NCBI GenBank assembly: GCA_903834665.1
Contig: CAILJY010000053.1
Span: 1 to 38,298 of the forward strand
DNA from: an uncultured bacterium
Lineage (GTDB): Bacteria; Patescibacteriota; Minisyncoccia; Phycocordibacterales; UBA9973
DNA: 38,298 nucleotides
Reading direction: 5' to 3'
Made by a program: the position numbers and the translations under genes. This document shows, piece after piece, positions 2,210-28,711 of this stretch. The notes below the pieces were generated by a model. It made no database searches. It worked only from the letters and a program-made list of their open reading frames with translations, and had not been told where the DNA came from. The stretch's first letter is position 1, and every line of letters starts with the position of its first letter.

Positions 2210-2250
2210 TTAACGAATTAACATTATTAATAATCACATCATAGCAAAAA

Positions 2251-2282
2251 ACACCTCTTACCACAATTCCAGTAAGAGGTGT
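2251..2282. terminator. intrinsic terminator hairpin (bidirectional) after the NYN gene
   Basis: ACACCTCTTAC / GTAAGAGGTGT 11-bp stem flanked by an A-run and a T-run. Confidence 0.7.
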
Positions 2283-2292
2283 TTTTGTTTTA

Positions 2293-2799
2293 TTAGTAGA
2301 TTAAATATTTTCGATAATTATTTGAAAGATCCAAGAAATCATCAGCTTGTTCTTTTAATTTCATCGAAGCACTTTTACCAAAGGAAACAACTTCAACTTG
2401 AACGCCAGATGTACTTTGTAAATATTCTACAAGGGGGACAAAGTCTCCATCTCCAGCGACTAAAATTACAGCATCTAGTTTTGGGGCCATCTTCATAGCA
2501 TCCACCGCAAGTCCTACATCCCAGTCTCCTTTTTTTGCTCCTCCAGAAAAAATTTGTAAATCTTTTGTTCTTGTTTCTATTCCAAGTTTTGTTAAAGCAT
2601 CAAAAAAATTTTTCTCTTCACCTCCTTCACTTGTGATAACATAAGCAATCGCACGAACAAGTTTACGTCCCGCGACAGCATCTTTCAAAACAGCACCAAA
2701 ATTAACTTTTCTCTTATATAAATTTTTGGCGGAGTGATATAGATTTGACGTATCTATGAAGACCCCGACTCTTTGCTCTTTGTGTTTTATTACACTCAT
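2293..2799 (-). CDS. NYN/LabA-like (PIN-related) domain protein
   Basis: Motifs VGVFIDTSNLYHS and ILVAGDGDFVPLVEYL are typical of the NYN/LabA family. The start was moved to the internal MSVIKHK Met; the 16 codons upstream look like read-through. Confidence 0.8.
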   Translation of the reverse strand: MSVIKHKEQRVGVFIDTSNLYHSAKNLYKRKVNFGAVLKDAVAGRKLVRAIAYVITSEGGEEKNFFDALTKLGIETRTKDLQIFSGGAKKGDWDVGLAVDAMKMAPKLDAVILVAGDGDFVPLVEYLQSTSGVQVEVVSFGKSASMKLKEQADDFLDLSNNYRKYLIY

Positions 2800-2888
2800 A
2801 ATATATAAATTTTTTATTAATATTAAAAATAAATTTTCATGAAACAATCGACCTTTTTAAAGTATACAACAGTTTAAAAAACAAAACA

Positions 2889-2905
2889 CCCGACTTGTGG
2901 TCGGG
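2889..2905 (-). terminator. rpsO terminator hairpin
   Basis: CCCGAC/GTCGGG stem followed on the minus strand by a U-rich tract, immediately after the rpsO stop. Confidence 0.65.
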
Positions 2906-2911
2906 ATTTTG

Positions 2912-3181
2912 TTAAGCTTTAATTTTTTTAGTTTCAGTTTCGAATCGTGTTTTGTCTGTTTTTTCTAAATGCTTAAGGTGGTTTCTGCGATCAGCTACCA
3001 TCTTTATTAAACCACGACGAGAACTGTTATCTTTTTTGTGTTCTTTTAAATGACCTGCAAGCTCATCGATTCTTTTACTTAAAATAGCGATCTGTACTTC
3101 AGGACTTCCAGTATCTTTATCATGTAACTGGTTTTTCTTTATAATATTTTGCTTTTTCTTTGTTGTTAACATTGTGGACAT
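2912..3181 (-). CDS. rpsO: 30S ribosomal protein S15
   Basis: 89 aa; [39 protein letters not shown] is the S15 signature region. Confidence 0.95.
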
Positions 3182-3358
3182 ATATTAGCATAAAATGTTA
3201 AAAAATGCAAGGCCCCTTGTAAGGACTCCTTAAAAATAGAATTTAAATTCTTTTTGTACTTTTTATTGATTAACTTGTAATTGTATCAATTAAGTTATCC
3301 ACTTTTTTATTACTAACTTTACTTGACTAAAGTTCTTTAGTTTGATAAAGTAAGATAT

Positions 3359-4483: not shown

Positions 4484-5347
4484 ATGAAAACAAAAACTTA
4501 TGTTGTATCAGCAGATATTTATCTGCTCCTTACTAAATGGGCAAAAGAAAGAAATTTTATTTTACCAGGGAAAGAATTCTTTGAGAATTTAAGGAAAGAA
4601 TTTTCTATTTATATGTCTAAAATTTTTTCAAATTTTGAATTAGTTTCAGAAAATGAAATTATGAAGCATATACAAAAGGTTATTACAGAATCTAGTATTC
4701 TTTGTGTAACACTCGATCAGATCTACTTTCCATCAGATTATTCTATAGAACTCACTAGAAAAGTGGATTTAAATGGAATAGATAGAGGACTTTATTCTCG
4801 TTTTGATAGCCTTTTATTTTTAAAACAACTGAGTAATTTAAAATCTAAAGGAATTAAGGAAATTTGTTTGATTGATGATGTTATTTTTTCCGGAATTCTT
4901 ATTGGGAGATTGGTTAAAATACTTTCAAATTTTGGAATAACTGTTTCGACTGTTTATGCAGGGATAGGAATCCAAAAAGGAATAGATCATATCTCAAAAA
5001 ATGGAAAGATTAAAATTGATTGCGCAAAAGTTTACTCTGAGGTTATAGATGAAGTTTGTGAGAGAGACTTTTATCTTGGGATACCTTATTCTGGGAGGTC
5101 ACTGGTTGGAGATAACAATATGAGTCTCCCCTATTTTCTCCCGTATGGAAATCCTTTAGCCTGGGCTTCTATTCCTTCTCCTTTTGAAATTGAATTTTCG
5201 AAATTTTGTATTAAACAAACAATTTTATTATTTGAAGAAATTGAAAAAATATCAAATAAAAAAGTTTGTTGTTCTGATATAAAAAGAAGAATTCCAAATC
5301 AGTCATTTAATGGTGATTATGTAAGTTTTTTGAAAAATATTATTTAA
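4484..5347 (+). CDS. hypothetical protein with phosphoribosyltransferase-like PRPP-loop motif
   Basis: 287 aa; EICLIDDVIFSGILIGRLV resembles the type I PRTase acidic-hydrophobic PRPP-binding loop. The rest is unrecognised. Confidence 0.45.
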   Translation: MKTKTYVVSADIYLLLTKWAKERNFILPGKEFFENLRKEFSIYMSKIFSNFELVSENEIMKHIQKVITESSILCVTLDQIYFPSDYSIELTRKVDLNGIDRGLYSRFDSLLFLKQLSNLKSKGIKEICLIDDVIFSGILIGRLVKILSNFGITVSTVYAGIGIQKGIDHISKNGKIKIDCAKVYSEVIDEVCERDFYLGIPYSGRSLVGDNNMSLPYFLPYGNPLAWASIPSPFEIEFSKFCIKQTILLFEEIEKISNKKVCCSDIKRRIPNQSFNGDYVSFLKNII

Positions 5348-9301: not shown

Positions 9302-10258
9302 GTGGAAAATTTTAATCTAGCAAAAATGGAAGACCCCAAAAAAGAATCTATTTTAGGTAAGGAACCTAAGGTTACAAATTTGTCTAAATTTACAGCATTA
9401 CTAAAACCTATTATAAAAGATATCCCTAATGTTAAAACTGCAATTTTATCTAAATTAATAGACAATAGTAAATTTGATAAAACTTTAGCAAATAACCTAT
9501 ATGCCAATCGTATATTAGAAGAAGAACTAATTGCCCCTGATAAATCTTTTTTAGAATTTACTCCTTCTTTGCCTGAGGGAACTAAGATAATTGATGTTTA
9601 TGGTTCTAATTATGTAAATATTGGGGATAAAATGTATTATATCCGAAATTTTAAGGGAGGGTTTGATCTCGTAGACAATACTAGAGATTTTATACCGGAT
9701 AAGTATCTTTCTCCTCGCGAGAACAAGAGAAGAGGTTTTTTCCAAAAAAAATATGGTCTTTCTATCACCACAGAATCAGTTCCTAGAAGAGAATTTTATA
9801 GATACAACGAATCTATTGGTGATTTAGACAATTGGATTATTCATAATGATATGGGGAAAATAAATAAGAATAGATCTAATAAAGATGAAACATGGTGGGT
9901 AAAAGGAGAGCCTTACAAGGCAATGGAAAGGCGCACTTTATTTGATAATCCAGTAGGTAGGCATTTATTTGCAAAGCAATCTGCGCTAGAATCATCAATA
10001 GGAAAGCCATTAGATGAACACAGAGAACTAATCGGAGATATGATAAAAGAAGGAAATGTTCAAAATGGTGGGATAACTGTAACTCATACATCAGAAGCAT
10101 CTTTACCAAACATAGAAGGGTTAAGGTCGTTTACTTATAATCCTATAACAAAATCTATGGAAAGAGGGATTTTCCATAATCCTAATAAACTAAAGGATAA
10201 AGATAAAAAAGAAGATTATAAACATCCTGGTTGGGACTATAATAATCCTGAAAAATAA
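9302..10258 (+). CDS. hypothetical protein
   Basis: 318-aa ORF with a GTG start in the track (alternative ATG at 9326). No recognisable motif. Confidence 0.5.
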   Translation: MENFNLAKMEDPKKESILGKEPKVTNLSKFTALLKPIIKDIPNVKTAILSKLIDNSKFDKTLANNLYANRILEEELIAPDKSFLEFTPSLPEGTKIIDVYGSNYVNIGDKMYYIRNFKGGFDLVDNTRDFIPDKYLSPRENKRRGFFQKKYGLSITTESVPRREFYRYNESIGDLDNWIIHNDMGKINKNRSNKDETWWVKGEPYKAMERRTLFDNPVGRHLFAKQSALESSIGKPLDEHRELIGDMIKEGNVQNGGITVTHTSEASLPNIEGLRSFTYNPITKSMERGIFHNPNKLKDKDKKEDYKHPGWDYNNPEK

Positions 10259-11910: not shown

Positions 11911-11982
11911 TGCCCCTGGAGGGAATCGAACCCCCATCACTGATTCCGAAGATCAGTACTTTATCCATTAAGCTACAAGGGC
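11911..11982 (-). tRNA. tRNA-Arg (anticodon TCG)
   Basis: Cloverleaf read by hand: acceptor GCCCTTG/CAGGGGC, anticodon arm CTGAT-CTTCGGA-ATCAG, T-loop TTCGATT. Confidence 0.9.
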
Positions 11983-12425
11983 TTATTATTTTTAAACCAT
12001 TTAAATTCTACCGCAGTTTTTCTTCTATGGCAATTAGCACATCGAACTTCACATTTTTTAATTTCTTCTTTAATTTTTTCTAGTGGATAGCGGGATTTCA
12101 TTAAGGAGGAAACAGCTTTAAATTTAATGCCTTTATTTTTACTATGATCAAATTCAAGAACCGTTATATCTGATTCCATACAATCAACACAAGGGTTTTT
12201 TAATAAATATTCCTTTATAAAAGAAACCATTTTAGATTTTAACTTTAAATTTCTTTGTCGAGTTTTTTCTAAATAGTAGTTCCTATTTTTTTTATAATGA
12301 TTTCTAATTAATTCTCTAGTACATTCTCTGCACTGATATTGTAGTATTTTTAGAGATTTAACCTTAAAATTAAACTCACCTTCTGTCTTTATTATCTTAC
12401 ATTTTGTGCATTTGCGCATTAGCAT
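11973..12425 (-). CDS. HNH endonuclease-like zinc-finger protein
   Basis: CxxC pairs plus C..DC......LEFDH......EIKKCEVRCANCHRRKT, a typical HNH motif. The 3' end overlaps tRNA-Arg by about 10 nt. Confidence 0.75.
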   Translation of the reverse strand: MLMRKCTKCKIIKTEGEFNFKVKSLKILQYQCRECTRELIRNHYKKNRNYYLEKTRQRNLKLKSKMVSFIKEYLLKNPCVDCMESDITVLEFDHSKNKGIKFKAVSSLMKSRYPLEKIKEEIKKCEVRCANCHRRKTAVEFKWFKNNKPL

Positions 12426-15562: not shown

Positions 15563-15570
15563 AATTAAAA

Positions 15571-15588
15571 TACCAGCTTAGGCTGGTA
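15571..15588. terminator. intrinsic terminator hairpin
   Basis: TACCAGC-TTAG-GCTGGTA followed by TTTTATGTTTTT. Confidence 0.75.
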
Positions 15589-15600
15589 TTTTATGTTTTT

Positions 15601-15715
15601 GGGGAGGGAGTCGAACTTTACAGGTTCAGTATACCTTTTCCATTCGTGATTACACTCATATGGAAAAGCTTTTCACCTCCCTTACGTTCCGTCCGTAGGG
15701 ACGGAACTATCCCGC
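15601..15715 (-). pseudogene. tRNA-Gly(TCC)-derived degenerate tRNA-like element ('shadow' copy)
   Basis: The minus-strand read starts with the Gly acceptor strand GCGGGAT-AG, then an 8-bp hairpin TTCCGTCC-CTAC-GGACGGAA. It then contains CTTTTCCA (anticodon-loop-like) and ends with TTCGACTCCCT (T-arm-like). The T-stem and the 3' acceptor strand are broken. It shares GAAAAGCTTTT and AAAAGGTATACTG with the element at 16038-16171. Confidence 0.35.
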
Positions 15716-15764
15716 ACATTTTAAAAAACACCCAAATAGGTGTTTTTTAAAATGTGCGGGATAA

Positions 15765-15835
15765 GGGAGTCGAACCCTTCACCACAGTTTGGAAAACTGT
15801 TATTTTACCGATAAACTAATCCCGCAAATATTTAA
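15765..15835 (-). tRNA. tRNA-Gly (anticodon TCC)
   Basis: Acceptor GCGGGAT/ATCCCGC, anticodon arm ACAGT-TTTCCAA-ACTGT, T-arm AAGGG-TTCGACT-CCCTT. Confidence 0.85.
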
Positions 15836-15928
15836 GTAATATACACTATTTATTATATTTATTCAACTAAGTAATTACAGAATGTAATTGTTTTTATTGT
15901 GGAATATGTTAATATAAGAAAATTGCAT

Positions 15929-16001
15929 CGGGGTGTGGTGTAACGGCTAACATTCCTGTTTTGGGAACAGGCGACTCCGGGTTCGAATCCCGGCACCCCG
16001 A
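15929..16001 (+). tRNA. tRNA-Pro (anticodon TGG)
   Basis: Acceptor CGGGGTG/CACCCCG, anticodon arm CCTGT-TTTGGGA-ACAGG, T-arm CCGGG-TTCGAAT-CCCGG. Confidence 0.9.
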
Positions 16002-16006
16002 CAAAT

Positions 16007-16030
16007 AAAAAACTCCGAAAGGAGTTTTTT
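16007..16030 (+). terminator. intrinsic terminator after tRNA-Pro
   Basis: AAAAAACTCC-GAAA-GGAGTTTTTT. Confidence 0.7.
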
Positions 16031-16037
16031 TATTTTA

Positions 16038-16171
16038 GGGGGTGAGTTAGCAAACTTCTTTGCTAATGTCCGGGATTCGAAAAGCTTTTGCTTATTTTTA
16101 AGGAATATATTCCGAAAAAATACAAAAGGTATACTGTCCATGTAATGGAAGAAATTCCCGGCACCCCGACA
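16038..16171 (+). pseudogene. tRNA-Pro-derived tRNA-like element with about 75-nt insertion in the T-loop ('shadow' copy)
   Basis: Order of parts: GGGGGTG-AG, 8-bp hairpin TTAGCAAA-CTTC-TTTGCTAA, CCGGG-ATTCGAA, the insertion, then ATT-CCCGG-CACCCCGACA. The last 17 nt are identical to the tRNA-Pro 3' end. It is followed by its own terminator at 16176-16200. Confidence 0.35.
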
Positions 16172-16260
16172 ATTTAAAAAACTCTCATCAGAGAGTTTTT
16201 CATAATAATTTTTTAGTTTATCTACTTGCAAACCATTTGCATTTATGATAAGCTCTTTAA

Positions 16261-19909: not shown

Positions 19910-22417
19910 ATGAAACCCGATATGTTACCACCAAATACAACAGAACAGAAAAATGAAGATTTAAATTCATTACCTGTAGAAAATAATACTTTAGAAAATA
20001 ATTTAAAAGCAATAATACCTGTAGATGAAAAACAGGAGACTTTTATAAAAATTCCATTGTCGGAAGAAGAATTAAATATGTCTACGGTAGATTTTGCAAA
20101 AAAATATGAATATACTTACAACGGAGCACAATTTGTAAAAGAAAGAGGCTTTAGGTCTATTCGCAATCCTAATTTTATTAGTAATAAATTATTTAATAAA
20201 ATAAATGTAGAAAATAAAAAAAAGTATATAGAAGAGGTCACACAACTGCCAATAATTTCAATTGAAACAGCGATAGGAAATGAGAAAGAGCAAAAAGAAA
20301 TAAAAAAAATAGTTGATATTTATGATCAATATAAACATCTTACTAAATATATTGGAAAGGAAAAGATGTATAGTAAAAAATTTAGACTTTTAAATGGCCA
20401 GGAATTATTTTTTGGAGATTTCGTTGTTTTAGATAGAATGATTGATTTAAAAATGTTTCGTAATAATGATGGAATATTAATGATGTTTGATGAAGAAAAA
20501 AATAACTTTACTAAATTTAAACAGAGTTCTTTTTTTAAAAAAAGTAAAAATCAAGGTTTTATTTTTAGAGATAATTTTAACCAACCCGAAAATCCTAAAA
20601 GGCAACGTGACATCGCTTCTCTTGAATCTTTCTCCCCAACAGTTTTTAAATTAGGATTTTTTAAAGAAGAAGACTTTGGGAAACGTCTTGCTGGAACAGT
20701 TACATATGATACATATGGCCCACACGAAAGAATGTTATCAAGGTCTAACCCCAATGTTTCTTTGTCTAATTCTATTGGTAGATGTATTTATTATATAGGA
20801 AGAGAAAAGTTTGTTGGCACCAATAAGGAAATAAATCATGAAACAGTTCGAGTTTCTCTTTTAGATAATGATACGGGGGTAATTACTGATATTTTTAATG
20901 GAAGAAAAGTTATTTTATATACTTTTCCTTTGATTAAGAAGGAAGAATATGAAATAAAAAAATCAGAAATTATAAAAAGAAGGCTTTTAGAAAATAAGAG
21001 TCTTGATAAAAAAAATGTTGAGGATAACATAACCGCTAAGGTATCTTTAAAAGCTTATTCTATCTTAAATTATATTCCCAAATATGATAAAGAGTCAGAG
21101 GTTGATTATAATAGTCGTATTTCTAAACTTTCGGATACATCTTATGTTTTAGGTAATTTCCGTTCATTTATGTCAGAAACTGGGCTAGCCGCGAATAATT
21201 ATTCATGGAGAGAACAATTAATTCTTGCGGACGCCCTAACTAGTTTTCATGATAAAAATAAAATTTTAGATCTGGGTAAAAATTTTGGTAAAGATGGGAT
21301 AAGAACATTTATTTCTATCGAACAAGGAGGGGAAAAAGAAAAAATGGGGGATAGCATTTTAACACTAGGAGAAACATTACCAAAAGATATAGCTAAGAAA
21401 GTTTTTGCAAAATATGGAGAAATTATAGACAATGTTAGTAAAATAACTGAATTTACTAGAACTAATTTTACTAAGGAAATAGAAATAAACCCCGATCTTA
21501 TTAAAAAGATAGAAGAAACATTATATTTAAAAGGGAAACAATTACTTTCACAGACTTACGATGATATAAATGATAAAAAAGAAGTTAACTATGAAGATAT
21601 AGGTAAACAGTTGGATCGTATAAATGCAGACACTATTACCACTTTTGCAATTTTTAAACAAGCGTTAAAAAATGGTGACAAATTATCTGTGGAAAGTATT
21701 GAGGGGTCAGTTTTTTCTAAAAAAGATACCCGAAGTATTCCAGATAGCCAGAGAGAAGAAATGTCTGATTTATATGATCGCAATTATAAAGATCATCCTG
21801 ATCGACAATTTATCGCAAAGGTTAAAGAATATTTTAATTCCGCTTTTATTCCCGAGGCTAATAAAATTAATAATTATTTTTATACTTTTGAAAAAGATAA
21901 TAAGACGAGAGCTTTTTTACGTTTTGAAAAACAAAAAAATGGTATTTTATACGCTAGCGCATTAAATGTTGATGAGGCAAGTAAAAACTTTGGACTTGGG
22001 GAAGCGATGATGGATGAAGCTCTTAGTCGTGAGGCAAAAGAAAATATTTTGAATGCTACTTGCTTAATATCTAATCCTAGTAATATGAGATATTTTGAAA
22101 AAGGTTTTGTGTCTAATCATTTTAAAATGTTAGATAATACTAATCAATTCGATCTAGTGTGGGATGAAAAGAATAATATAAATATTATCTCTAAGAAAAA
22201 AAGTATTGAGGAATTAATTTCTATGTATTTGAAGAATAATTTTGAAGGAAGTATTGAAATAAAAAAAGAAGAAAATTTAGAAAAGCTACATCAATTTATT
22301 CCAAACAACAAAGCTTTAGTTAGATGTTTTAGGGATCCTGCAAGTCAGAATAGCTGGTATGCCGTCTATGAAAAATTACCTGAAAATTATGGTTTGAATA
22401 CTTCAGAGGTAGTATAA
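19910..22417 (+). CDS. large hypothetical protein with C-terminal GNAT-like segment
   Basis: 835-aa ORF. The C-terminal ALNVDEASKNFGLGEAMMDEAL...NPSNMRYFEKGF resembles GNAT motif A plus the following helix. The N-terminal roughly 650 aa are unrecognised. Confidence 0.55.
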   Translation: MKPDMLPPNTTEQKNEDLNSLPVENNTLENNLKAIIPVDEKQETFIKIPLSEEELNMSTVDFAKKYEYTYNGAQFVKERGFRSIRNPNFISNKLFNKINVENKKKYIEEVTQLPIISIETAIGNEKEQKEIKKIVDIYDQYKHLTKYIGKEKMYSKKFRLLNGQELFFGDFVVLDRMIDLKMFRNNDGILMMFDEEKNNFTKFKQSSFFKKSKNQGFIFRDNFNQPENPKRQRDIASLESFSPTVFKLGFFKEEDFGKRLAGTVTYDTYGPHERMLSRSNPNVSLSNSIGRCIYYIGREKFVGTNKEINHETVRVSLLDNDTGVITDIFNGRKVILYTFPLIKKEEYEIKKSEIIKRRLLENKSLDKKNVEDNITAKVSLKAYSILNYIPKYDKESEVDYNSRISKLSDTSYVLGNFRSFMSETGLAANNYSWREQLILADALTSFHDKNKILDLGKNFGKDGIRTFISIEQGGEKEKMGDSILTLGETLPKDIAKKVFAKYGEIIDNVSKITEFTRTNFTKEIEINPDLIKKIEETLYLKGKQLLSQTYDDINDKKEVNYEDIGKQLDRINADTITTFAIFKQALKNGDKLSVESIEGSVFSKKDTRSIPDSQREEMSDLYDRNYKDHPDRQFIAKVKEYFNSAFIPEANKINNYFYTFEKDNKTRAFLRFEKQKNGILYASALNVDEASKNFGLGEAMMDEALSREAKENILNATCLISNPSNMRYFEKGFVSNHFKMLDNTNQFDLVWDEKNNINIISKKKSIEELISMYLKNNFEGSIEIKKEENLEKLHQFIPNNKALVRCFRDPASQNSWYAVYEKLPENYGLNTSEVV

Positions 22418-23181
22418 AGAGCTTCAAATAAACTTTTGAATAATTTATTTATTCTTTCGTCTTCTATTATAATACTAATAAGATTTTCATTTGAGATGGT
22501 AATAATTCCTATTTTGTTTTCATATATTTGGATAGCCCCTTCTACCTCACTTATTAAAGTTTTGGCTATTTTTATGTTGGTAATAGAAAAATATTTTGGA
22601 TCTTTATTATATAAATCATTAAAATATTTTTTAGAAAAATCATTTTCAATAATTAATGCCCTTTTTTTAATATTTAATTTTTCTCTTTTTATTACATATT
22701 GTTCATTTATCTCTTTAAAATATTTATCGACTATTTCTATATCAGCATAAGTTAGTACTTCTCCTTTTGTGTTTAATGTGTCTTCTAAAACTTTATTTAC
22801 TCCATCTTTACCTTCATAGAACTGAATATTTGGTTTGCCAGAAAGAAGATTAAATTTTGAAGAGAGGGCTCCGAGGGAGAAGGAGACAGTTTCTTTTGCT
22901 AGTGCAAAAGATTTTTCTTTTTGTTCCATGATCTCGGCTAGTCTCGATGGATGATTTGGAGAAAAGACGGCCACTGTACCTTCGCCTCCTTTTTGTGATA
23001 TCAATCCCATATTTTCTAATTGATCAAGGACTTTATAAACCAGTCCTCTTTTTAGGCCTGTCCACGAAGAAATAGAGCCCGCTTTTAATGGTCCTTTATC
23101 TAAGAGGGCACTATATATAGCAGATTGTTCTTCTGATAATCCAGCTTCTATTAATATTTTTTCGTCAGTATTTTGGTTCAT
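22387..23181 (-). CDS. TrmB-like winged-helix transcriptional regulator
   Basis: The N-terminal GLSEEQSAIYSALLDKGPLKAGSISSWTGLKRGLVYKVLDQLENMGLI is a TrmB/MarR-type wHTH. The 3' end overlaps the convergent 835-aa gene by 31 nt. Confidence 0.7.
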   Translation of the reverse strand: MNQNTDEKILIEAGLSEEQSAIYSALLDKGPLKAGSISSWTGLKRGLVYKVLDQLENMGLISQKGGEGTVAVFSPNHPSRLAEIMEQKEKSFALAKETVSFSLGALSSKFNLLSGKPNIQFYEGKDGVNKVLEDTLNTKGEVLTYADIEIVDKYFKEINEQYVIKREKLNIKKRALIIENDFSKKYFNDLYNKDPKYFSITNIKIAKTLISEVEGAIQIYENKIGIITISNENLISIIIEDERINKLFKSLFEALYTTSEVFKP

Positions 23182-23323
23182 GTATTTTATTTAAAGTTAA
23201 TTAATTAACTGTTTAAAGTATAGCATAGTCATTATTTTCACGCAAATATGACAAAATAGATAAATAAAATATCCTTATTTATCAACATATTTCTTTATAT
23301 TATTTTATCATTATCACATAGCA

Positions 23324-23352
23324 TTGACATTATGTAAAGAATCTGCTATACT
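23324..23352 (+). promoter_or_regulatory. consensus-like sigma70 promoter facing the E2/JAB/E1/Ubl operon
   Basis: TTGACA (23324-23329), exactly 17-nt spacer, TATACT (23347-23352). Confidence 0.5.
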
Positions 23353-23358
23353 ATCCAC

Positions 23359-24395
23359 AAGAGTTAAGGAAGAGAGATCGAAAGATAAATCTTCCAAAAA
23401 CAAGGAGAGAGTACCTTAAAGGAGATATAGAAGATTGATGTTCACCTCTGATCTTGAGATTAATAATCAAAGGACGGTATATGGACCGGTAAGCCATACA
23501 AAAAGAGAGAGTGTCCTAGAACAATCTTCAATACATATCTGTTTGCACCGTGAATAGTTAATGACGTTTCAGCCGCAAACCGAAACTATCTAACATACAT
23601 TCACAACCGTGTTATCTCGAAGCAATTCGAGGAGACATCGACAGACCATAAGAGCTTAACCCACTTTTGTGATCTGAAATGTCTTTACAAGGGAGCTTGT
23701 TGTTAATCCGTCGTCGCTAAAGCTATGACGAGACGAAGGGAGAGAGTTGATAATGAGAGCATAGAGAGGAGAGAGACCAGATCTATGGTATAGACGATTT
23801 CTTTGAAAATCATGCCTCGTGGAATTTTAATTATTAAAATTCTTTACGGGGTAAAATATTGTGCATTTAAGAAACTTTTGAAATCACAAGTATTTCTTCC
23901 CTTAGGAAGTTATTCTTGGGATACAGAGCTTTTTGAACGTGCAACAAGCATCGCAAATTATTAAATTTGTGAGGTAGAAAAGTGATTTCATAAAAAATTT
24001 AGGGGTTTATTTAGTGCATCAATTTTGGTGTTTTAAATTAACCTCTAAATTTAATATTATGGAACCACCAGGTGTTTATGGTCGTTATTGGGCGACTTAA
24101 AAGAAACCAATAGGCTGAAGATATACCTATCATGTAGGGTTTATTTTTGGTAACTAAAAACAGAAGTTGTTATATGAATCGTACTTATGTGATCCAACCA
24201 TGGCGAATGATCTATGAGTTGGGGAGTCGTATAGGTACGATAACAAGGTTGATGACCGATATTATCGGATTGACGAAGCTCAGATTGATCTGGGTCAGTT
24301 GATCCAGAGAATGTCTTTAATCAGCCAGACGCTGAGCAAAATTTTTTAAACAGTCTCTAGGCCGATTGATGCTAAGGAGACACAAATTTTGAAAA
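23359..24395 (+). ncRNA. about 1-kb ORF-poor leader / candidate long noncoding RNA with repeated GGAGAGAG-type purine motifs
   Basis: No ORF of 60 aa or more in any frame between 23182 and 24395. Five (A/G)GGAGAGAG-like motifs lie at 23368, 23404, 23503, 23738 and 23768. Several local hairpins are present, for example CTCGAA-GCAA-TTCGAG at about 23616-23631. Confidence 0.3.
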
Positions 24396-25523
24396 ATGGG
24401 AAATGTTGATATTGGAGAGGTGAAAATCCTTTCTTGGCAAGACAATGGTCAAAACCTTGCAGTAAAAGCATTGACTGAAATTCTTCTCCCCACATTGCAA
24501 GGGAAAAATGTGGCAATTTCTGTGCCGCACCAAAATTTAATGGAACCTCAAGAAACTGAGGATTTCCAAATCTTTATTTGGAGTTCACGATCAGGAGACA
24601 GAAAAATCAAACCTCCGTATAAAATATGGGGTTATGATGTTGCTTGCCGTGATGAAGCATTCCCTGGAACCGGTATGGGAACTGCTATTGTGGATGAGTC
24701 CACCGGTTATGTTGTGGCTGAACTTTTTGATGATAAAGTACTGTATGTTCACCATGACATTTTGCATTATGGTGCAGACGCAGAATATAAAATATTCTGC
24801 CATTTGTTACAGGTGGTGATAGAAGAAATATCGTCCAAAGATCCTGAAGAAAAACTGGCACGTGAAAAAAAACGAGCCGAAGAAATAAAAAATGCCAGCC
24901 GTGAAGCATTTGTTAAAGCCTGTTCAGGCCGTTTTGACAAATTGCTTTCTGGAACTCAGAAAACAATTGAGGAAGGTCACAAGACCATCCAAAAATTGCA
25001 AATTGATCTGACCACAAAAGTCCGCGAAGTAAAAGGTGCCGAGCAGAAGCTTGTGCAACTTGCAAAAGCGCGGCCTGAAGCCGAAGACGGCTATCGTAAG
25101 GAGTTCGAAAAATTCCTGACGATACAAGACGTCAAGAAAATTGAAGCCGGCGACGGCGTGATAAGGGTATTTACCAATATGATATTTATTAAACACGAAG
25201 GTGTGAAATATCAGATTGGAGAATTCCGAATCGAGATCTTTATCAACGGAGGGATCAAGTTTTTCAACTTGACCAACGGGGGTAAGGGTCCGGGGGCTAC
25301 AAACCCCTCAGGATTCAATGGTAACACCAGCTATAACCGTCACCACCCACACGTTCAGGGTGATGGTACTCCGTGTCTTGGTACAATCTCTTCAGCTGTT
25401 CCACAGTTGATTGGAGAATACCAGTATAGTGTTGTGGCTATTCTTGCCATACAGTATCTTAAATCAGTAAATGCTGAGGACTCAGCAGGGCAAGGGATTT
25501 ACTGGTGGCCAAAAGCAGAATAA
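24396..25523 (+). CDS. E2/UBC-like ubiquitin-conjugating-type protein with unknown N-terminal domain and central coiled coil
   Basis: Residues 317-328, HPHVQGDGTPCL, align position-for-position with the UBC active-site signature HPN(I/V)xxxGx(I/V)CL. Cys327 is TGT at 25374-25376. A beta-meander-like segment VIRVFTNMIFIKHEGVKYQIGEFRIEIFI precedes it. Residues about 150-235 are heptad-like and charged. The gene is GC-elevated. Confidence 0.7.
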   Translation: MGNVDIGEVKILSWQDNGQNLAVKALTEILLPTLQGKNVAISVPHQNLMEPQETEDFQIFIWSSRSGDRKIKPPYKIWGYDVACRDEAFPGTGMGTAIVDESTGYVVAELFDDKVLYVHHDILHYGADAEYKIFCHLLQVVIEEISSKDPEEKLAREKKRAEEIKNASREAFVKACSGRFDKLLSGTQKTIEEGHKTIQKLQIDLTTKVREVKGAEQKLVQLAKARPEAEDGYRKEFEKFLTIQDVKKIEAGDGVIRVFTNMIFIKHEGVKYQIGEFRIEIFINGGIKFFNLTNGGKGPGATNPSGFNGNTSYNRHHPHVQGDGTPCLGTISSAVPQLIGEYQYSVVAILAIQYLKSVNAEDSAGQGIYWWPKAE

Positions 25524-25579: not shown

Positions 25580-26248
25580 ATGAAACAAATGTTCATAGAA
25601 AAGCGTGCTGCGAGCCAATTCGCCCCGCACGACTTTCAAACAGAAACGGTGCTGCTAAATTATGCAGTGCCCCATATTAAGATTACGCAGGCGGCGTATC
25701 TGGATATGTATTACATAGCCGCCGCGTCAGGTCAGGAGGAGATCTCATGGCTTGGAACCGTAAAAAAAGTTGGCCATGTTTACACCATTGAAGAGGTAAT
25801 ACTCTTTGAACAAGAGGTGGAAATGGCCACAACGGCGATGACACCCGCAGACATTGCAAAGGTGTCCACTGACTTAATCATTGCCGGTGAAATTGAAAAG
25901 GTAAATTCGCTGAAGTTCTGGGGCCACGTGCACCCAAGCAACAGCACTTCCCCGTCAGGCCAGGACGAATCCCAAATGGATGTATTATCTAATGGGAACG
26001 AATGGTTTATTCGTGGTATCTTCGGCCGTTATGGCCGTGCGGAATTTACCTTTTTTGACTGGGGGCATGGACTTCGCTTCAATGACGTGCCATGGGAGCT
26101 TGTAGTTCCTAACGATGAAAGTCGTGAAGCTGAAATCCGCGATCAGGTGACCGCAAAAGTAAAAAAAGTCATTCACCAGCCGATTTTTAGTGGCTTAGGC
26201 CACGAAAATGATTGGCATAAAAATCGTGAATCATGGAAAATGGATTAA
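25580..26248 (+). CDS. JAB/MPN (JAMM) metalloisopeptidase
   Basis: Complete JAMM motif: Glu in GQEEISW, then H116-V-H118-x7-S126-x2-D129 (GHVHPSNSTSPSGQD, DNA 25925-25966). An SD-like GGAGGTG lies about 8 nt upstream of the ATG. Confidence 0.85.
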   Translation: MKQMFIEKRAASQFAPHDFQTETVLLNYAVPHIKITQAAYLDMYYIAAASGQEEISWLGTVKKVGHVYTIEEVILFEQEVEMATTAMTPADIAKVSTDLIIAGEIEKVNSLKFWGHVHPSNSTSPSGQDESQMDVLSNGNEWFIRGIFGRYGRAEFTFFDWGHGLRFNDVPWELVVPNDESREAEIRDQVTAKVKKVIHQPIFSGLGHENDWHKNRESWKMD

Positions 26249-26946
26249 CGCCGGATTATTGGCGTCAATTGGATATGTTTGATCCTCAAACCTTTACCAC
26301 CCCAGTGCATATCATAGGGGTCGGTGCTACAGGTAGCTGGGTAGCCTTCATCTTAGCGAAGATGGGGGTAAAAAACATCATCGTATGGGACTTCGATATA
26401 GTGGAAGTCCACAACTTGCCAAATCAGATTTATGGTTTGCAGGAAGTGGGGCTTCTGAAAGTTGAGGCCCTAAAGAAAATTATCCTTCGGGATTGTGGAA
26501 TCGAAATCGAGGCGAAAGTCGAGAAAGTAGATGGATCTCAAAAATTAGAAGGTATCGTGTACATTTGTACTGATACCATGTCATCAAGAAAGGAAATATG
26601 GCTTAATAGCTTGAAGTACCAACTTGATGTCAATCTAGTTATTGAAACTCGTTTGGGAGCAGAGCTCGGCACAATTTATTGTGTTAGGCCACTTGACCCA
26701 ACCGATGTCAGAGAGTATGAAAACACATTGTATGATGACAATGAGGCTGAGGAATCACCCTGCAGTTATCGTGCAATACCAACAGTAGTAAGTATTATTG
26801 CAGGCCTCGCTAGCCACAAGCTGGTGAAGTTTGCAGCAAACAGTGATCTGCAGCCGGTGATAAGACTTCATGAAAATGAAAGTCATTCATCATACGAAAT
26901 GCTTTGCATCCGCCCGATTGTGGCTACAGCCCATGGGTGGAAATAA
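26233..26946 (+). CDS. minimal ThiF/MoeB-type E1-like adenylyltransferase
   Basis: Rossmann GxGxxG (IIGVGATGSW, DNA 26317-26334), DFDIVEVHNLPNQ (the ThiF D-x-D...NL-x-x-Q motif), and a candidate crossover-loop Cys in ESPCSY. The start overlaps the JAB stop by 16 nt, suggesting translational coupling. Confidence 0.8.
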   Translation: MENGLTPDYWRQLDMFDPQTFTTPVHIIGVGATGSWVAFILAKMGVKNIIVWDFDIVEVHNLPNQIYGLQEVGLLKVEALKKIILRDCGIEIEAKVEKVDGSQKLEGIVYICTDTMSSRKEIWLNSLKYQLDVNLVIETRLGAELGTIYCVRPLDPTDVREYENTLYDDNEAEESPCSYRAIPTVVSIIAGLASHKLVKFAANSDLQPVIRLHENESHSSYEMLCIRPIVATAHGWK

Positions 26947-26995
26947 AAAAAAATTAAAAATAAACATTTTTTCAAATTTTTTAAAAACTCAGACA

Positions 26996-27676
26996 ATGGC
27001 AAATTTGAATTTAACCGTCGGGAAAGTCCCGGGAACGGTAAAACAAATCACGATCAATGAACCTGCTACAGTTTTAACAGCGATGCAAACAGCAGCAAGT
27101 GTTTGTGGATTTTCCTTTTCAAAGGACCCGTATTCAGCCAACGGGAAAGACATGGTTGATGTTCCGTTCCTTAACGGTCGCGAACTCGCGGTCCGTGAGG
27201 GGGACAAGATCACTGAAGTTCTCTGGGATACGGAAGTAACCGATGGTGACATTGTGTTGCTGGTCCCAAAAATACGGGGCAATCAATTCTTGGTTACCGT
27301 GGCCAAAGTGCCTGGTGAGAAACACACAATTGCCTTACTTCATGCTTCCGAACCTGAGGCAACCGAAGACGACGGGACTGTGACCAATGCTATACAGGTC
27401 GCCGGACTGGAGTTTGATCCTGAGTTCGAGGAGATTACAGTGAATGGCGAAGAATCTAATACAGAAACCGTTTTGACTGATGGTGACGAAGTTGTGATTA
27501 TGGAAAAGGTTTCCGTGAGCACCTCAGAGTTATTTGAGGAAAAATCGGAGTATGATGAGCCAGAAAATAATTACGGCGAGCCGGAACCAAAAAAATACTT
27601 CACCGTGTTTAAAAATGGAACATTTAAAGTAAGGGTTGCCCGGGACTACACAAGGATATTGATTATCCTGAGGTAA
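26996..27676 (+). CDS. tandem double beta-grasp (ubiquitin-like) protein with acidic linker and basic/hydrophobic tail
   Basis: Internal duplication is visible: LTVGKVPG...TDGDIVLLV (aa 6-90) versus VTVAKVPG...TDGDEVVIM (aa 100-169). ITVNGE...VLTDGDEVVI is ThiS/MoaD-like. The start is set at MANLNL (ATG 26996); the track's upstream extension overlaps the E1 gene. Confidence 0.65.
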   Translation: MANLNLTVGKVPGTVKQITINEPATVLTAMQTAASVCGFSFSKDPYSANGKDMVDVPFLNGRELAVREGDKITEVLWDTEVTDGDIVLLVPKIRGNQFLVTVAKVPGEKHTIALLHASEPEATEDDGTVTNAIQVAGLEFDPEFEEITVNGEESNTETVLTDGDEVVIMEKVSVSTSELFEEKSEYDEPENNYGEPEPKKYFTVFKNGTFKVRVARDYTRILIILR

Positions 27677-28127
27677 AATAATTTTTTTCGCCGTTAAATT
27701 AAAAAGTTAGCAAATAGCTGACTTTCAGGGAGTTTCTTTATTCTCCCATTCTGCTAACAGCAGACTTCGAATAAAATATAGCGAATTGGACACCGTAAGT
27801 CAGTTGGAGCGGGAACTCTAAGTTGATAATGGTGCTCGAGCATGCAGGAAGTGTATGTATGAGGGGTTATGGGTTAAAAAACATAATAATGCCGAATATA
27901 AATTAAGACTTTATTCGGCATCCTTGTTGAGTTCATAAAATATTTTTAGCCATTTAATTTATGAATTCATAGGGATATTCCCTAGCTTTTCTTTATAAAA
28001 AATAAAGAGGAGAGAGAGCAGGGTGATAAAGAGATTTATCACTTTTGCCGAGCGAATAAATTTATTTGTCCGTTCGGTAAAAGTTTGTTCTTTATAAATT
28101 TTCATTAAAAAAAGAAAGGAGAGAGTA

Positions 28128-28394
28128 ATGAAAAAAGTTTACGACTTAGATCGCATTTCAATATCACTTGAAGTTTATAACGTATGGAAAAAATATGTAG
28201 TTGTAAAAGTTGTTGAGTGGTATGAAAAATCGGGTAGATTAAAAGGGATAGATATTTCTCAAATACCAGATGAGCAATTTCGAGAGCTCGAAAATGGTGA
28301 TGGAGAGATATTCCTAATGATGCCTGATAAAGTTGAGATTGTACTTCATGTTCCAAAAGGGCACTGGGGTCCAATCGAGATAATTGAGAACTAA
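28128..28394 (+). CDS. small hypothetical protein (88 aa)
   Basis: Preceded by AAAGGAGAGAGTA-ATG, a strong SD that is also a copy of the island's GGAGAGAG motif. Followed by hairpin GTGGCAAGA-TTTAT-CTTGCCAC (28404-28425). Confidence 0.5.
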   Translation: MKKVYDLDRISISLEVYNVWKKYVVVKVVEWYEKSGRLKGIDISQIPDEQFRELENGDGEIFLMMPDKVEIVLHVPKGHWGPIEIIEN

Positions 28395-28421
28395 GAAAAT
28401 ATTGTGGCAAGATTTATCTTG

Positions 28422-28576
28422 CCACCATAATTTTGTCGATTAATATTTGAAGACGTCGTAATAAATTATTACACTGTAATAATTTATGAAATCTCTCTCC
28501 TCGTCTCGTAAAGAAATTAATTATAATTTCCACGGGATTGCGATTAATTGAAAATTAATCGACAGAATTATGGTGG
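28422..28576. repeat. 155-bp element bounded by 23-bp inverted repeats (MITE-like / structured RNA)
   Basis: CCACCATAATTTTGTCGATTAAT (28422-28444) matches the reverse complement of 28554-28576 at 22/23. The interior holds three hairpins and an inverted GGAGAGAG motif at 28493-28500. Confidence 0.45.
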
Positions 28577-28584
28577 TAAAGAAA

Positions 28585-28612
28585 CAGCCCCGCGACGAGA
28601 GTCGCGGGGCTG
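28585..28612. terminator. GC-rich hairpin CAGCCCCGCGAC-GAGA-GTCGCGGGGCTG (likely clpP terminator)
   Basis: 12-bp GC-rich stem 100 nt downstream of the clpP stop. A near-identical copy lies at 32162-32190. Confidence 0.6.
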
Positions 28613-28711
28613 TTTGTGTATTTAGTATTTTTTCACATCATCGAGGAGCGTATGAACATGTAATGATGCTTATAACGTCCGAGAGAAGATGGGATAAGGA
28701 ATTAATCTTCC

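Follow-up and report, generated by a model that had tools for sequence, protein, structure and literature searches.

In this study, we describe a kilobase of gene-free DNA directly upstream of an operon for ubiquitin-like protein conjugation (E2-like, JAB-like and ThiF-type E1 genes and a gene for a ubiquitin-like protein, Ubl) in a bacterium of the Candidate Phyla Radiation (CPR). The window, the whole stretch of DNA analysed, is 38,298 nucleotides (nt) long, and the gap in question extends over 1,214 nt, from a divergent TrmB-like gene (22387-23181, minus strand) to the E2-like gene (24396-25523, plus strand). We consider it probable that this kilobase, free of long open reading frames (ORFs), is one long structured non-coding RNA that runs rightward from its promoter as the leader of the E2-JAB-E1-Ubl operon and carries a riboswitch-like 3' domain. 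It is firmly supported that a modular structured RNA on the plus strand is under selection and that its architecture is conserved across three CPR lineages, and relatives transcribe its 5' domain. An earlier note on this DNA, made from the sequence alone, had offered a long regulatory 5' untranslated region (UTR) among several explanations. This one is supported: upstream of homologous E2 operons the promoter, the leader and a pseudoknot domain at the ribosome-binding site show conservation with covariation.

The E2-like family is tiny (24 clusters among 5.8 billion proteins). DNA around thirteen of its clusters was compared, giving nine distinct homologous E2 loci with the upstream region recovered; loci carry L numbers, and L006 and L021 are cut off upstream. 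The features at the 3' end of the leader in the window are as follows.

24060-24225, plus strand: start of the 3' module, ATGGAACCACC..., with hairpin GTCG-TTATTGGG-CGAC; duplicated as a unit in L009
24226-24337, plus strand: pseudoknotted 3' domain (covariation, covariance model, folding z-score -3.5)
24226-24241, plus strand: helix P0
24247-24253 with 24320-24326, plus strand: helix P1
24256-24268, plus strand: helix P2
24269-24277, plus strand: junction ATTGACGAA
24278-24283 with 24332-24337, plus strand: pseudoknot
24282-24285 with 24313-24316, plus strand: helix P3a
24289-24308, plus strand: helix P3b
24353-24381, plus strand: P4 hairpin GTCTCT...AGGAGAC with conserved loop GCCGATTGATG

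In the 3' domain, P0 is followed by AA, by P1 enclosing P2, by the invariant junction UGACGA, by a two-part P3 (P3a, internal loops GAUUGAU and AAUGUC, then P3b) and by an invariant CAGACG, and the pseudoknot joins the junction to the tail of the domain. The 110-150 nt or so just upstream of E2 retain 75-90% nucleotide identity where the E2 proteins are only 40-56% identical. P1, the pseudoknot, P2, P3b and P0 each occur in three to five sequence versions, all of which pair. The versions of P1 are GGTTGAT/ATCAGCC, GATTGAC/GTCAATC, GGACATC/GATGTCC and GGATGAT/ATTATCC, and those of the pseudoknot GCTCAG/CTGAGC, GCCCAG/CTGGGC, GCTTGGG/CCCGAGC, ACCCAG/CTGGGT and GCTCAGG/CCTGAGC. In the model-based alignment 94.6% of the cells were paired, against 32-44% for slid partners. 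Covariation among homologous loci, which had been proposed as a check on the region, was found: both sides had changed in 17 of the 27 pairs, compared with 6.8 +/- 1.7 in shuffles, and 0/500 shuffles reached 17. Since G-U pairs are frequent, the 3' domain reads as plus strand only. A covariance model of the domain scored 78-126 bits; all its matches were upstream of E2 genes (two in L009, one in every other carrier), and the rest of the 185 kb of loci gave none; run with filters off on L019, L021, L024 and L026, it returned noise only. An exact-pattern scan of metagenome and species-genome collections gave, among the matches listed, the known loci plus a Moranbacteria contig, L018, with the same sequence as L012. 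The start of the 3' module (24060-24225) differs from L007 by a one-base indel and therefore holds no conserved peptide. In L009 (5240-5660) the whole 3' module is duplicated, and the diverged second pseudoknot copy (95 bits) has no gene after it.

Hairpin P4 stands between this domain and the E2 gene, whose ATG (24396) is 59 nt from the end of the 3' domain. Before that ATG there is no Shine-Dalgarno-like sequence other than the 3' arm of P4 (AAGGAG, 24374-24379). The P4 stem covaries (CCCC/GGGG in L001, CCCT/AGGG in L004), and its loop GCCGAUUGAUG (CCGRUUGAUG) is conserved even in L019, which is without the pseudoknot domain. In L011 the called start codon falls inside P4. A switch in which the P4 loop mimics the 5' strand of P1 was considered and rejected, the loop being constant while P1 changes in L012.

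The other end of the leader is set by a promoter and, in several loci, a divergent regulator gene.

23324-23352, plus strand: sigma-70-type promoter TTGACA-N17-TATACT, agreeing with 11 of 12 consensus positions
22387-23181, minus strand: divergent TrmB-like helix-turn-helix gene (Pfam TrmB, E 5.7e-11)

The promoter that the earlier note had read at this position is present: besides TTGACA (23324-23329), TATACT (23347-23352) and the 17-nt spacer, it has an extended -10 element with TG at 23344-23345, and it is the top promoter-like site within 6.5 kb. Transcription is predicted to start near 23359. Neither the hexamers nor TGnTATACT vary among L001, L007, L009, L012, L023, L026 and L011.

A long gene-free stretch precedes E2 in every locus whose E2 protein is at least 43% identical, and also in the Moranbacteria locus L012 (40%). 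Its length is 642 nt in L004, 1,172 nt in L011, 1,420 nt in L007, 1,804 nt in L009, 1,893 nt in L023, 2,297 nt in L012 and 2,527 nt in L001. An identical promoter stands 1.15-2.3 kb from E2 in six of the nine distinct loci (L001, L007, L009, L012/L018, L023 and L011), with nothing credible coding between promoter and E2 in any of the six; the other three (L004, L019, L024) gave no promoter match. The loci with promoter and leader span Saccharibacteria, Moranbacteria and Nomurabacteria, L012 and L018 being labelled Candidatus Moranbacteria. Full-length TrmB homologues (31-52% identity) adjoin the same promoter in L001, L007, L009, L012, L023 and L026, and the TrmB-like protein probably controls the leader promoter where it is present. 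An obligatory partnership was ruled out, the gene being absent from L011 and L004. L011 also has a different neighbourhood (RuvC, RuvB), so that promoter, leader and operon evidently travel together; its leader consists of promoter, middle part and 3' domain, with no 5' domain. Locus L026 (Candidatus Nomurabacteria, 2250-3200) carries the TrmB gene, the identical promoter and a leader of about 660 nt, in which GGAGAGAGT and AGAGAGA lie in clear hairpin loops on stems of 6 and 10 pairs, and has three uncharacterised genes (199, 269 and 118 amino acids) and no E2 gene. Promoter and leader start can therefore be regarded as a cassette reused with different cargo. The TrmB-like gene of the window has a -10 box of its own, TGCTATACT, at 23217-23225 on the minus strand, a mirror image of the leader promoter at a distance of 120 nt. 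The resulting imperfect inverted repeat of 25 nt (23210-23234 with 23335-23359) suggests joint control of both divergent promoters.

Between promoter and 3' module lie a folded 5' domain and a variable middle part.

About 23359-23688, plus strand: 5' domain, a folded RNA of about 300-330 nt shared by the window, L007, L009 and L001
23430-23437 with 23522-23529, plus strand: long-range helix of the 5' domain, GAAGATTG with CAATCTTC
23480-23498, plus strand: hairpin TATGG/CCATA with loop ACCGGTAAG
23616-23631, plus strand: GNRA hairpin CTCGAA-GCAA-TTCGAG
End near 23688, plus strand: closing helix of the 5' domain
23689-24059, plus strand: variable middle part with long hairpins at 23814-23853 and 23990-24057

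The leader is 78-84% identical to those of L007 and L009, while the adjacent TrmB gene and the first 490 nt or so of the E2 gene could not be aligned at the nucleotide level (blastn). RNAalifold, run on the four sequences that share the 5' domain, gave 61 pairs, 16 of them with compensatory changes, and 94.9% of cells paired compared with 38-48% for slid partners, figures in which the structure is scored on the same four sequences (window, L007, L009, L001) from which it was predicted. In the alignment the hairpin TATGG-ACCGGTAAG-CCATA is replaced by CCTAA-GCCTGTAAG-TTAGG, and CTCGAA-GCAA-TTCGAG by CATCACC-GTAA-GGTGGTG with a GNRA loop in both; two hairpins of the 5' domain have GNRA loops. 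Insertions in relatives fall in the middle part (about 800 nt in L009, whose extra copy of the 3' module lies here, and more in L001), where the 23990-24057 hairpin shows a compensatory change from G-C to A-U, read from the alignment, and where conserved pieces occur in L011 in the same order. The minimum free energy of the whole leader is -298 kcal/mol on the plus strand versus -241 kcal/mol on the minus strand. A convincing intrinsic terminator was found nowhere between promoter and E2. A single viral-contig match to the 5'-domain pattern, inside a phage contig densely covered with ORFs, was taken as chance.

The leader is also rich in a purine motif, GGAGAGAG, which is strand-specific and enriched; its copies in the leader are as follows.

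23371-23377, plus strand: copy 1, AGAGAGA, relaxed
23403-23411, plus strand: copy 2, AGGAGAGAG, in the loop of a short AAGG/CCTT hairpin
23504-23511, plus strand: copy 3, AGAGAGAG, relaxed
23738-23746, plus strand: copy 4, GGGAGAGAG, followed by a non-conserved mini-ORF at 23753-23764
23763-23776, plus strand: copies 5 and 6, AGAGAG then GAGAGAGA, followed by a non-conserved mini-ORF at 23785-23793

Five copies had been claimed earlier for the leader. Exact RGGAGAGAG occurs three times in the gap (23403, 23738 and 23767), and the other two sites, 23368 and 23503, agree only in relaxed form (GGAAGAGAGA and AAAGAGAGAG). The window as a whole holds 6 exact copies where 0.40 are expected (0/100 shuffles reached 6), and all 6 fall within 23.4-28.5 kb. 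On the minus strand GAGAGA/AGAGAG is entirely missing from the gap in the window and from the homologous gaps examined. The segment 23763-23776 is kept in L011 too. Across loci, 9 of 34 copies lie in loops of hairpins with at least 6 pairs, where 1.7 +/- 1.3 are expected. With stems of at least 4 pairs the count is 12/34, against 10.2 after shuffling, which is no excess; the proposition that every GAGAGAG copy sits in a hairpin loop was thus dropped, the subset at 6 pairs or more remaining significant.

Taken together, these elements would make up an RNA of four modules. The first would be the promoter, sometimes accompanied by the divergent TrmB-like regulator gene, and the second the compact, purine-motif-rich 5' domain of about 330 nt, which appears to accumulate as a stable RNA and which, possibly by binding protein, may tune the fate of the long leader or act on its own. 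The GGAGAGAG copies could stay single-stranded so that a purine-repeat-binding protein, or 30S subunits, can dock on them, and docking there would stabilise or tune the long untranslated RNA. A variable hairpin-rich spacer would form the third module. The fourth would be the E2-operon-specific 3' domain, with its four helices, pseudoknot and conserved junction, followed by P4, which overlaps or abuts the translation start region. We infer that the 3' domain may be a riboswitch-like sensor of a small molecule or a protein, deciding whether P4 hides the E2 ribosome-binding site; such a sensor would keep a potentially harmful conjugation system silent until needed.

RNA evidence was sought by metatranscriptome mapping, as the earlier note had recommended, and RNA contigs of relatives were obtained on the 5' domain only. 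The sequence of the window itself is present in lake-water DNA runs, and the RNA runs come from relatives. Five RNA-seq (metatranscriptome) runs, from wastewater and peat, have contigs on 23347-23688, one of these spanning 23397-23686; they are at a depth of 2-5 and strandless, and could include carried-over DNA (X16 also covers the promoter region).

23514-23666: RNA contig of run X14
23347-23505: RNA contig of run X15
23403-23685, in three pieces: RNA contigs of run X16
23430-23686: RNA contig of run X17
About 23370-23686: RNA contig of run X18

Among the contigs of X14, the one listed is the sole one to match over its full length anywhere in the 38 kb, at about 96% identity. The contigs of X17 and X18, from two peat studies, end within two bases of 23688 (23686-23688), while DNA contigs run past this point into divergent sequence, which suggests an RNA 3' end there.

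Several observations weigh against a single leader transcript with a regulatory 3' end, besides the origin of the RNA contigs and the scoring of the 5' domain noted above. No RNA contig covers 23860-24395 or E2 and no read links the 5' domain to E2, and the part downstream of about 23688 may be a separate or rare transcript. Locus L004 has the 3' domain without the promoter and without the 5' domain. The distant E2 operons L019, L021 and L024 are without the pseudoknot domain, and the upstream gaps are just 200-270 nt or so in L019 and L024, that of L021 being cut by the contig end. P4 hides the Shine-Dalgarno sequence only in window-like loci, a separate one being present 3' of P4 in L012 and L023. 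No alternative 'on' structure with mutually exclusive pairing was found, and no ligand or protein partner has been identified.

Part of this evidence fits a tentative alternative, to which we give a minor share of our confidence: that the first 330 nt or so are an independent, stable, trans-acting non-coding RNA, for example a sponge or scaffold for a protein binding AG repeats or GGA, and that the E2 operon has a 5' UTR element of its own. The restriction of RNA contigs to 23347-23688 and the shared end of the two peat contigs favour it. In DNA metagenomes (wood decay, marine, drinking water, groundwater) many variants of 23300-23700 occur, at depths up to 363 and mostly without the highly conserved 3' domain, so that the 5' domain also exists without a 3' domain of the E2 type. 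The modules are separable, as L011 and L004 show, and the excess of motif copies in loops of the longer hairpins would suit a protein ligand. In Bacillus subtilis, the distal face of Hfq is specific for the ligand (AG)3A (PMC3287200), which equals the leader motif; this is a lead only, and no Hfq or CsrA gene was seen within the 38-kb window. Against such an RNA, there is no terminator after 23688, and the restricted coverage is equally explained by 23347-23688 being the only part of the leader conserved enough (80% or more) to map between strains. The independent RNA proposed in the earlier note is partly supported, for the first 330 nt or so, and in this form it is compatible with the leader model and does not exclude it.

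A second alternative keeps the long leader and changes the role of its 3' end: the pseudoknot domain would be bound by a protein of the operon itself (the E2 N-terminal domain, the JAB-like protein, Ubl or the 88-amino-acid protein encoded downstream), giving translational autoregulation and not small-molecule sensing. The domain is found only with this E2 subfamily, and the retention of the P4 loop CCGRUUGAUG in L019, in the absence of the pseudoknot domain, suggests a sequence-specific reader. The E2-like protein moreover begins with a domain of about 125 residues, which precedes a long helical region and for which no fold match could be recognised. However, a search of the four operon proteins for an RNA-binding domain (sequences against solved structures, and a fold search with the E2 model) returned nothing beyond the weak E2 fold, and compact pseudoknots whose junction nucleotides are invariant are seen more typically in ligand aptamers. 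We consider autoregulation unlikely.

A third alternative concerns the purine motif. The STAB-SD element of Bacillus cryIIIA mRNA offers a model in which Shine-Dalgarno-like decoys dock 30S subunits; the GGAGAGAG copies might likewise shield the untranslated RNA from 5'-to-3' decay, and might start tiny ORFs. The conserved 88-amino-acid ORF at 28128 has this same 9-mer as its ribosome-binding site; further occurrences are in the conserved 450-nt spacer preceding the ORF and at 28493 on the minus strand. In L012 the E2 Shine-Dalgarno sequence is itself AAGGAGAGA, and RNase Y is encoded nearby. Two motif copies precede the mini-ORFs that the earlier note had pointed out, ATG-AGA-GCA-TAG (23753) and ATG-GTA-TAG (23785); both exist, but neither is conserved, each being lost in L007 or L009. 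Host genes, furthermore, are largely without Shine-Dalgarno sequences, and decoys would explain the motif only and leave the conserved folds unexplained. We regard this alternative as unlikely.

The kilobase was also examined for coding potential. The distance from the -10 box to the E2 ATG is 1,043 nt, close to the 1,035 nt previously given as free of ORFs of at least 60 amino acids; inside the gap the longest ORF from start to stop is 53 amino acids and the longest stop-free run 59 codons. All three stop codons are frequent in the six frames, as had been stated, and reassigning TGA, TAG or TAA alone gives at most 79, 86 and 133 stop-free codons, respectively. An alternative genetic code was rejected on this ground, and the flanking genes read normally under table 11. 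Pfam searches with nine of the longest stop-free fragments (at least 43 amino acids) gave nothing better than E 0.005, itself below the cut-off. Indels between relatives are not multiples of three, and single-base indels between close relatives break every small ORF; the ORF beginning MFTS at 23435 is not conserved, and a one-base indel in L007 disrupts the one beginning MEPPG at 24058. A repeat search in the gap found just one two-copy 19-nt family and no CRISPR or ToxI-like array. Decayed genes, also on the list of candidate explanations, were not borne out: a gene graveyard, or a protein gene with an unusual code or frameshifts, has only the absence of ORFs in a compact genome in its favour and is very improbable, given that the stop-free fragments searched have no Pfam signal in any frame, that no single reassignment opens more than 133 codons, that the gene-free state persists in loci with E2 proteins 40-83% identical, and that helix substitutions are compensatory and indels do not come in threes.

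We return here to the structured leader and its setting. The window is chromosomal DNA of an AT-rich CPR bacterium (GC content about 27-37%), with genes for PNPase, ribosomal protein S15, the CCA-adding enzyme, Fur, HU, RNase Y, ClpP and trigger factor and with four tRNA genes; the nearest public contigs carry the label Candidatus Saccharibacteria. GC content climbs to 42-46% at about 24.0-28.0 kb, coinciding with the E2 operon, against 27-37% in the flanks, and the E2-like/JAB-like/ThiF-E1/Ubl operon is therefore regarded as acquired DNA. In relatives, the slot between the RNase Y/GNAT/TrmB side and the ClpP side also houses AbiEii, Bro-N, Fic and AAA_14 genes, and on account of this varied cargo appears as a variable hot spot resembling a defence island; AbiEii and Bro-N genes lie near the operon in L007.

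Host genes in the window mostly have no Shine-Dalgarno sequence and show a TATAAT-like box 5-10 nt ahead of the ATG (examples at 13373, 35794, 8400 and, on the minus strand, 11973-12425), a pattern suggesting that host mRNAs are mainly leaderless. Exceptions in the island are the E2-like, JAB-like and 88-amino-acid genes, which do have Shine-Dalgarno-like sequences. As most host genes are without leader or Shine-Dalgarno sequence, a leader of 1 kb is exceptional in this window. The statement that all other intergenic regions measure 50-500 nt proved nearly right; one of 698 nt (15563-16260, with two tRNA genes) exceeds this range, and the next are 491 and 451 nt.

The products of the operon are listed below.

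24396-25523, plus strand: E2-like protein, with HPH-x7-C-L-G invariant
25580-26248, plus strand: JAB-like protein (weak PADLOC match, E 0.0015)
26233-26946, plus strand: ThiF-type E1 (ThiF, E 4e-19)
26996-27676, plus strand: Ubl (ThiS and Ub-Mut7C, E about 0.001, below Pfam cut-offs)

The AlphaFold model of the E2-like protein (pLDDT 90) has the E2 enzyme UbcH7 as its best fold match, a weak one (E 0.087). The Ubl gene as called mechanically (26870-27676, 268 amino acids) overlaps the E1 gene by 77 nt; its start is probably the ATG at 26996, since homologues have 197-227 amino acids. The protein appears to contain two beta-grasp-like halves.

Downstream of Ubl, another conserved spacer without genes, about 450 nt long (27677-28127), reaches to the 88-amino-acid ORF (28128-28394) and is present in L001, L006, L007, L009 and L012. 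It contains covarying hairpins, for example GCCGAATA...TATTCGGC versus GCTGAGTA...TACTCAGC, and two AGGAGAGAG copies at 28008 and 28117. Identity with L007 over 28004-28140 is 90%, above that of coding parts (about 79%), and the operon probably has in this spacer a further structured RNA element. In L007, a GTCCT/AGGAC hairpin followed by GCGAGATAAAAG-GGAGAGAG occurs both in the leader and in the downstream spacer of the same operon (4875-4928 and 9551-9606), as does a CCAGCACTAA...TTAGTGCTGG hairpin (5223-5260 and 9483-9525); these repeated elements are either shared functional modules or miniature mobile insertions. The family of the 88-amino-acid ORF is very small, with 13 clusters, and neither Pfam nor PADLOC gave a match. 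Several loci have ORFs of 85-88 amino acids after the E2 operon, and L026, which is without the operon, also contains a member of the family. A candidate small RNA on the minus strand (28400-28515), conserved in L009, lies between terminators at 28404-28425 and 28582-28615; it is ordered as a TATAAT box, ACGAGACGAGGAGAGAGA, a hairpin and the terminator 28425-28404, and ACGAGACGAGGAGAGAGA closely resembles leader positions 23728-23748.

Bacterial ubiquitin-like conjugation (Bil, Bub, CBASS type II) is a recent and active topic, and here 1-2.3 kb of structured RNA belong to a rare operon subfamily of ultrasmall CPR bacteria. As CPR genomes are strongly reduced and host genes mostly leaderless, a kilobase of non-coding RNA implies strong selection. 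Rfam, which has neither the 5' domain nor the 3' pseudoknot domain, would gain at least two new RNA families from them. The 3' domain offers a concrete, testable idea of how the cell could keep a potentially toxic conjugation system switched off and is an orphan riboswitch-like candidate, whose gene context could point to a new signalling molecule. It is a more speculative and rather improbable proposition that the RNA is a working part of the conjugation system, either as a new riboswitch class for an infection or stress small molecule or as a scaffold or sensor bound by E2 or Ubl; if true, this would be the first RNA-dependent ubiquitin-like pathway in bacteria.

Membership of a known RNA family was not supported by cmscan (Rfam 15, 4,227 models, among them riboswitches, ribozymes, OLE, GOLLD, ROOL, HEARO, raiA, CsrB/RsmZ, 6S, RNase P and tmRNA): in the whole window only four tRNAs reach the gathering threshold, and at E <= 10 the region 23100-24500 gave matches of AT-rich hairpins to microRNA and small nucleolar RNA models (E 0.08-10), far below threshold. 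L001, L004, L006, L007, L009, L011, L012, L023 and L026 likewise gave nothing beyond tRNAs and hairpin noise. Literature text searches returned no RNA component for bacterial E1/E2/JAB/Ubl systems, nor such a system in Saccharibacteria. The proteins do resemble Bil, Bub and CBASS type II Cap2/Cap3 in combining an E1 (ThiF), an E2-like protein, a JAB-like protease and a ubiquitin-like protein, encoded on a horizontally acquired island of higher GC content beside defence-type genes (AbiEii, Bro-N in L007), but E1 apart (ThiF, E 4e-19) they match known families weakly. To our knowledge, the known regulators of Bil/Bub/CBASS-type operons are all proteins (CapW, CapH/CapP, CapK/CapS) and none is an RNA.

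Three groups of bacterial RNA share traits with the leader. Like type III toxin-antitoxin RNAs of the ToxI kind, it is a non-coding RNA with a strong promoter directly 5' of defence-type protein genes, but it is without tandem direct repeats and without a terminator between RNA and genes. Like CsrB/RsmZ sponges, the protein-titrating RNAs to which the earlier note had compared it, and like (AG)n ligands of Hfq, it has multiple GGA/(AG)n motifs on one strand, some in loops, and in other places of the island real ribosome-binding sites coincide with the motif. It differs from CsrB/RsmZ in that only about a quarter of its copies are in clear loops and the motif is GGAGAGAG and not A(N)GGA; the sole Rfam match to PrrB/RsmZ lies in another spacer of L001, at 23.8 bits against a cut-off of 44. 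With OLE, GOLLD, ROOL, HEARO/omega RNA and raiA it has in common an ornate, covarying structure that extends over hundreds of nucleotides and includes GNRA loops, a distribution restricted to few lineages, and neighbouring genes of mobile or defence type. In contrast to these, it matches none of their Rfam models even at E <= 10, is modular over 1.0-2.3 kb and is physically joined to its operon.

The 3' domain, in turn, resembles riboswitches and structured 5' UTR regulators: it has about 110 nt with covarying helices, a pseudoknot and an invariant junction, in the window it lies just 5' of a hairpin involving the ribosome-binding site of the first gene of the operon, and with 17/27 double changes it has a conserved, covarying fold such as an aptamer would have. 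It differs from them in standing at the end of a 1-2.3 kb leader and not near the transcription start, in having no evident 'on' conformation and in preceding genes for ubiquitin-like conjugation, not for metabolism or transport. The element would work like a structured 5' UTR regulator or orphan riboswitch joined to a large ornate non-coding RNA, and it lies outside the catalogued families.

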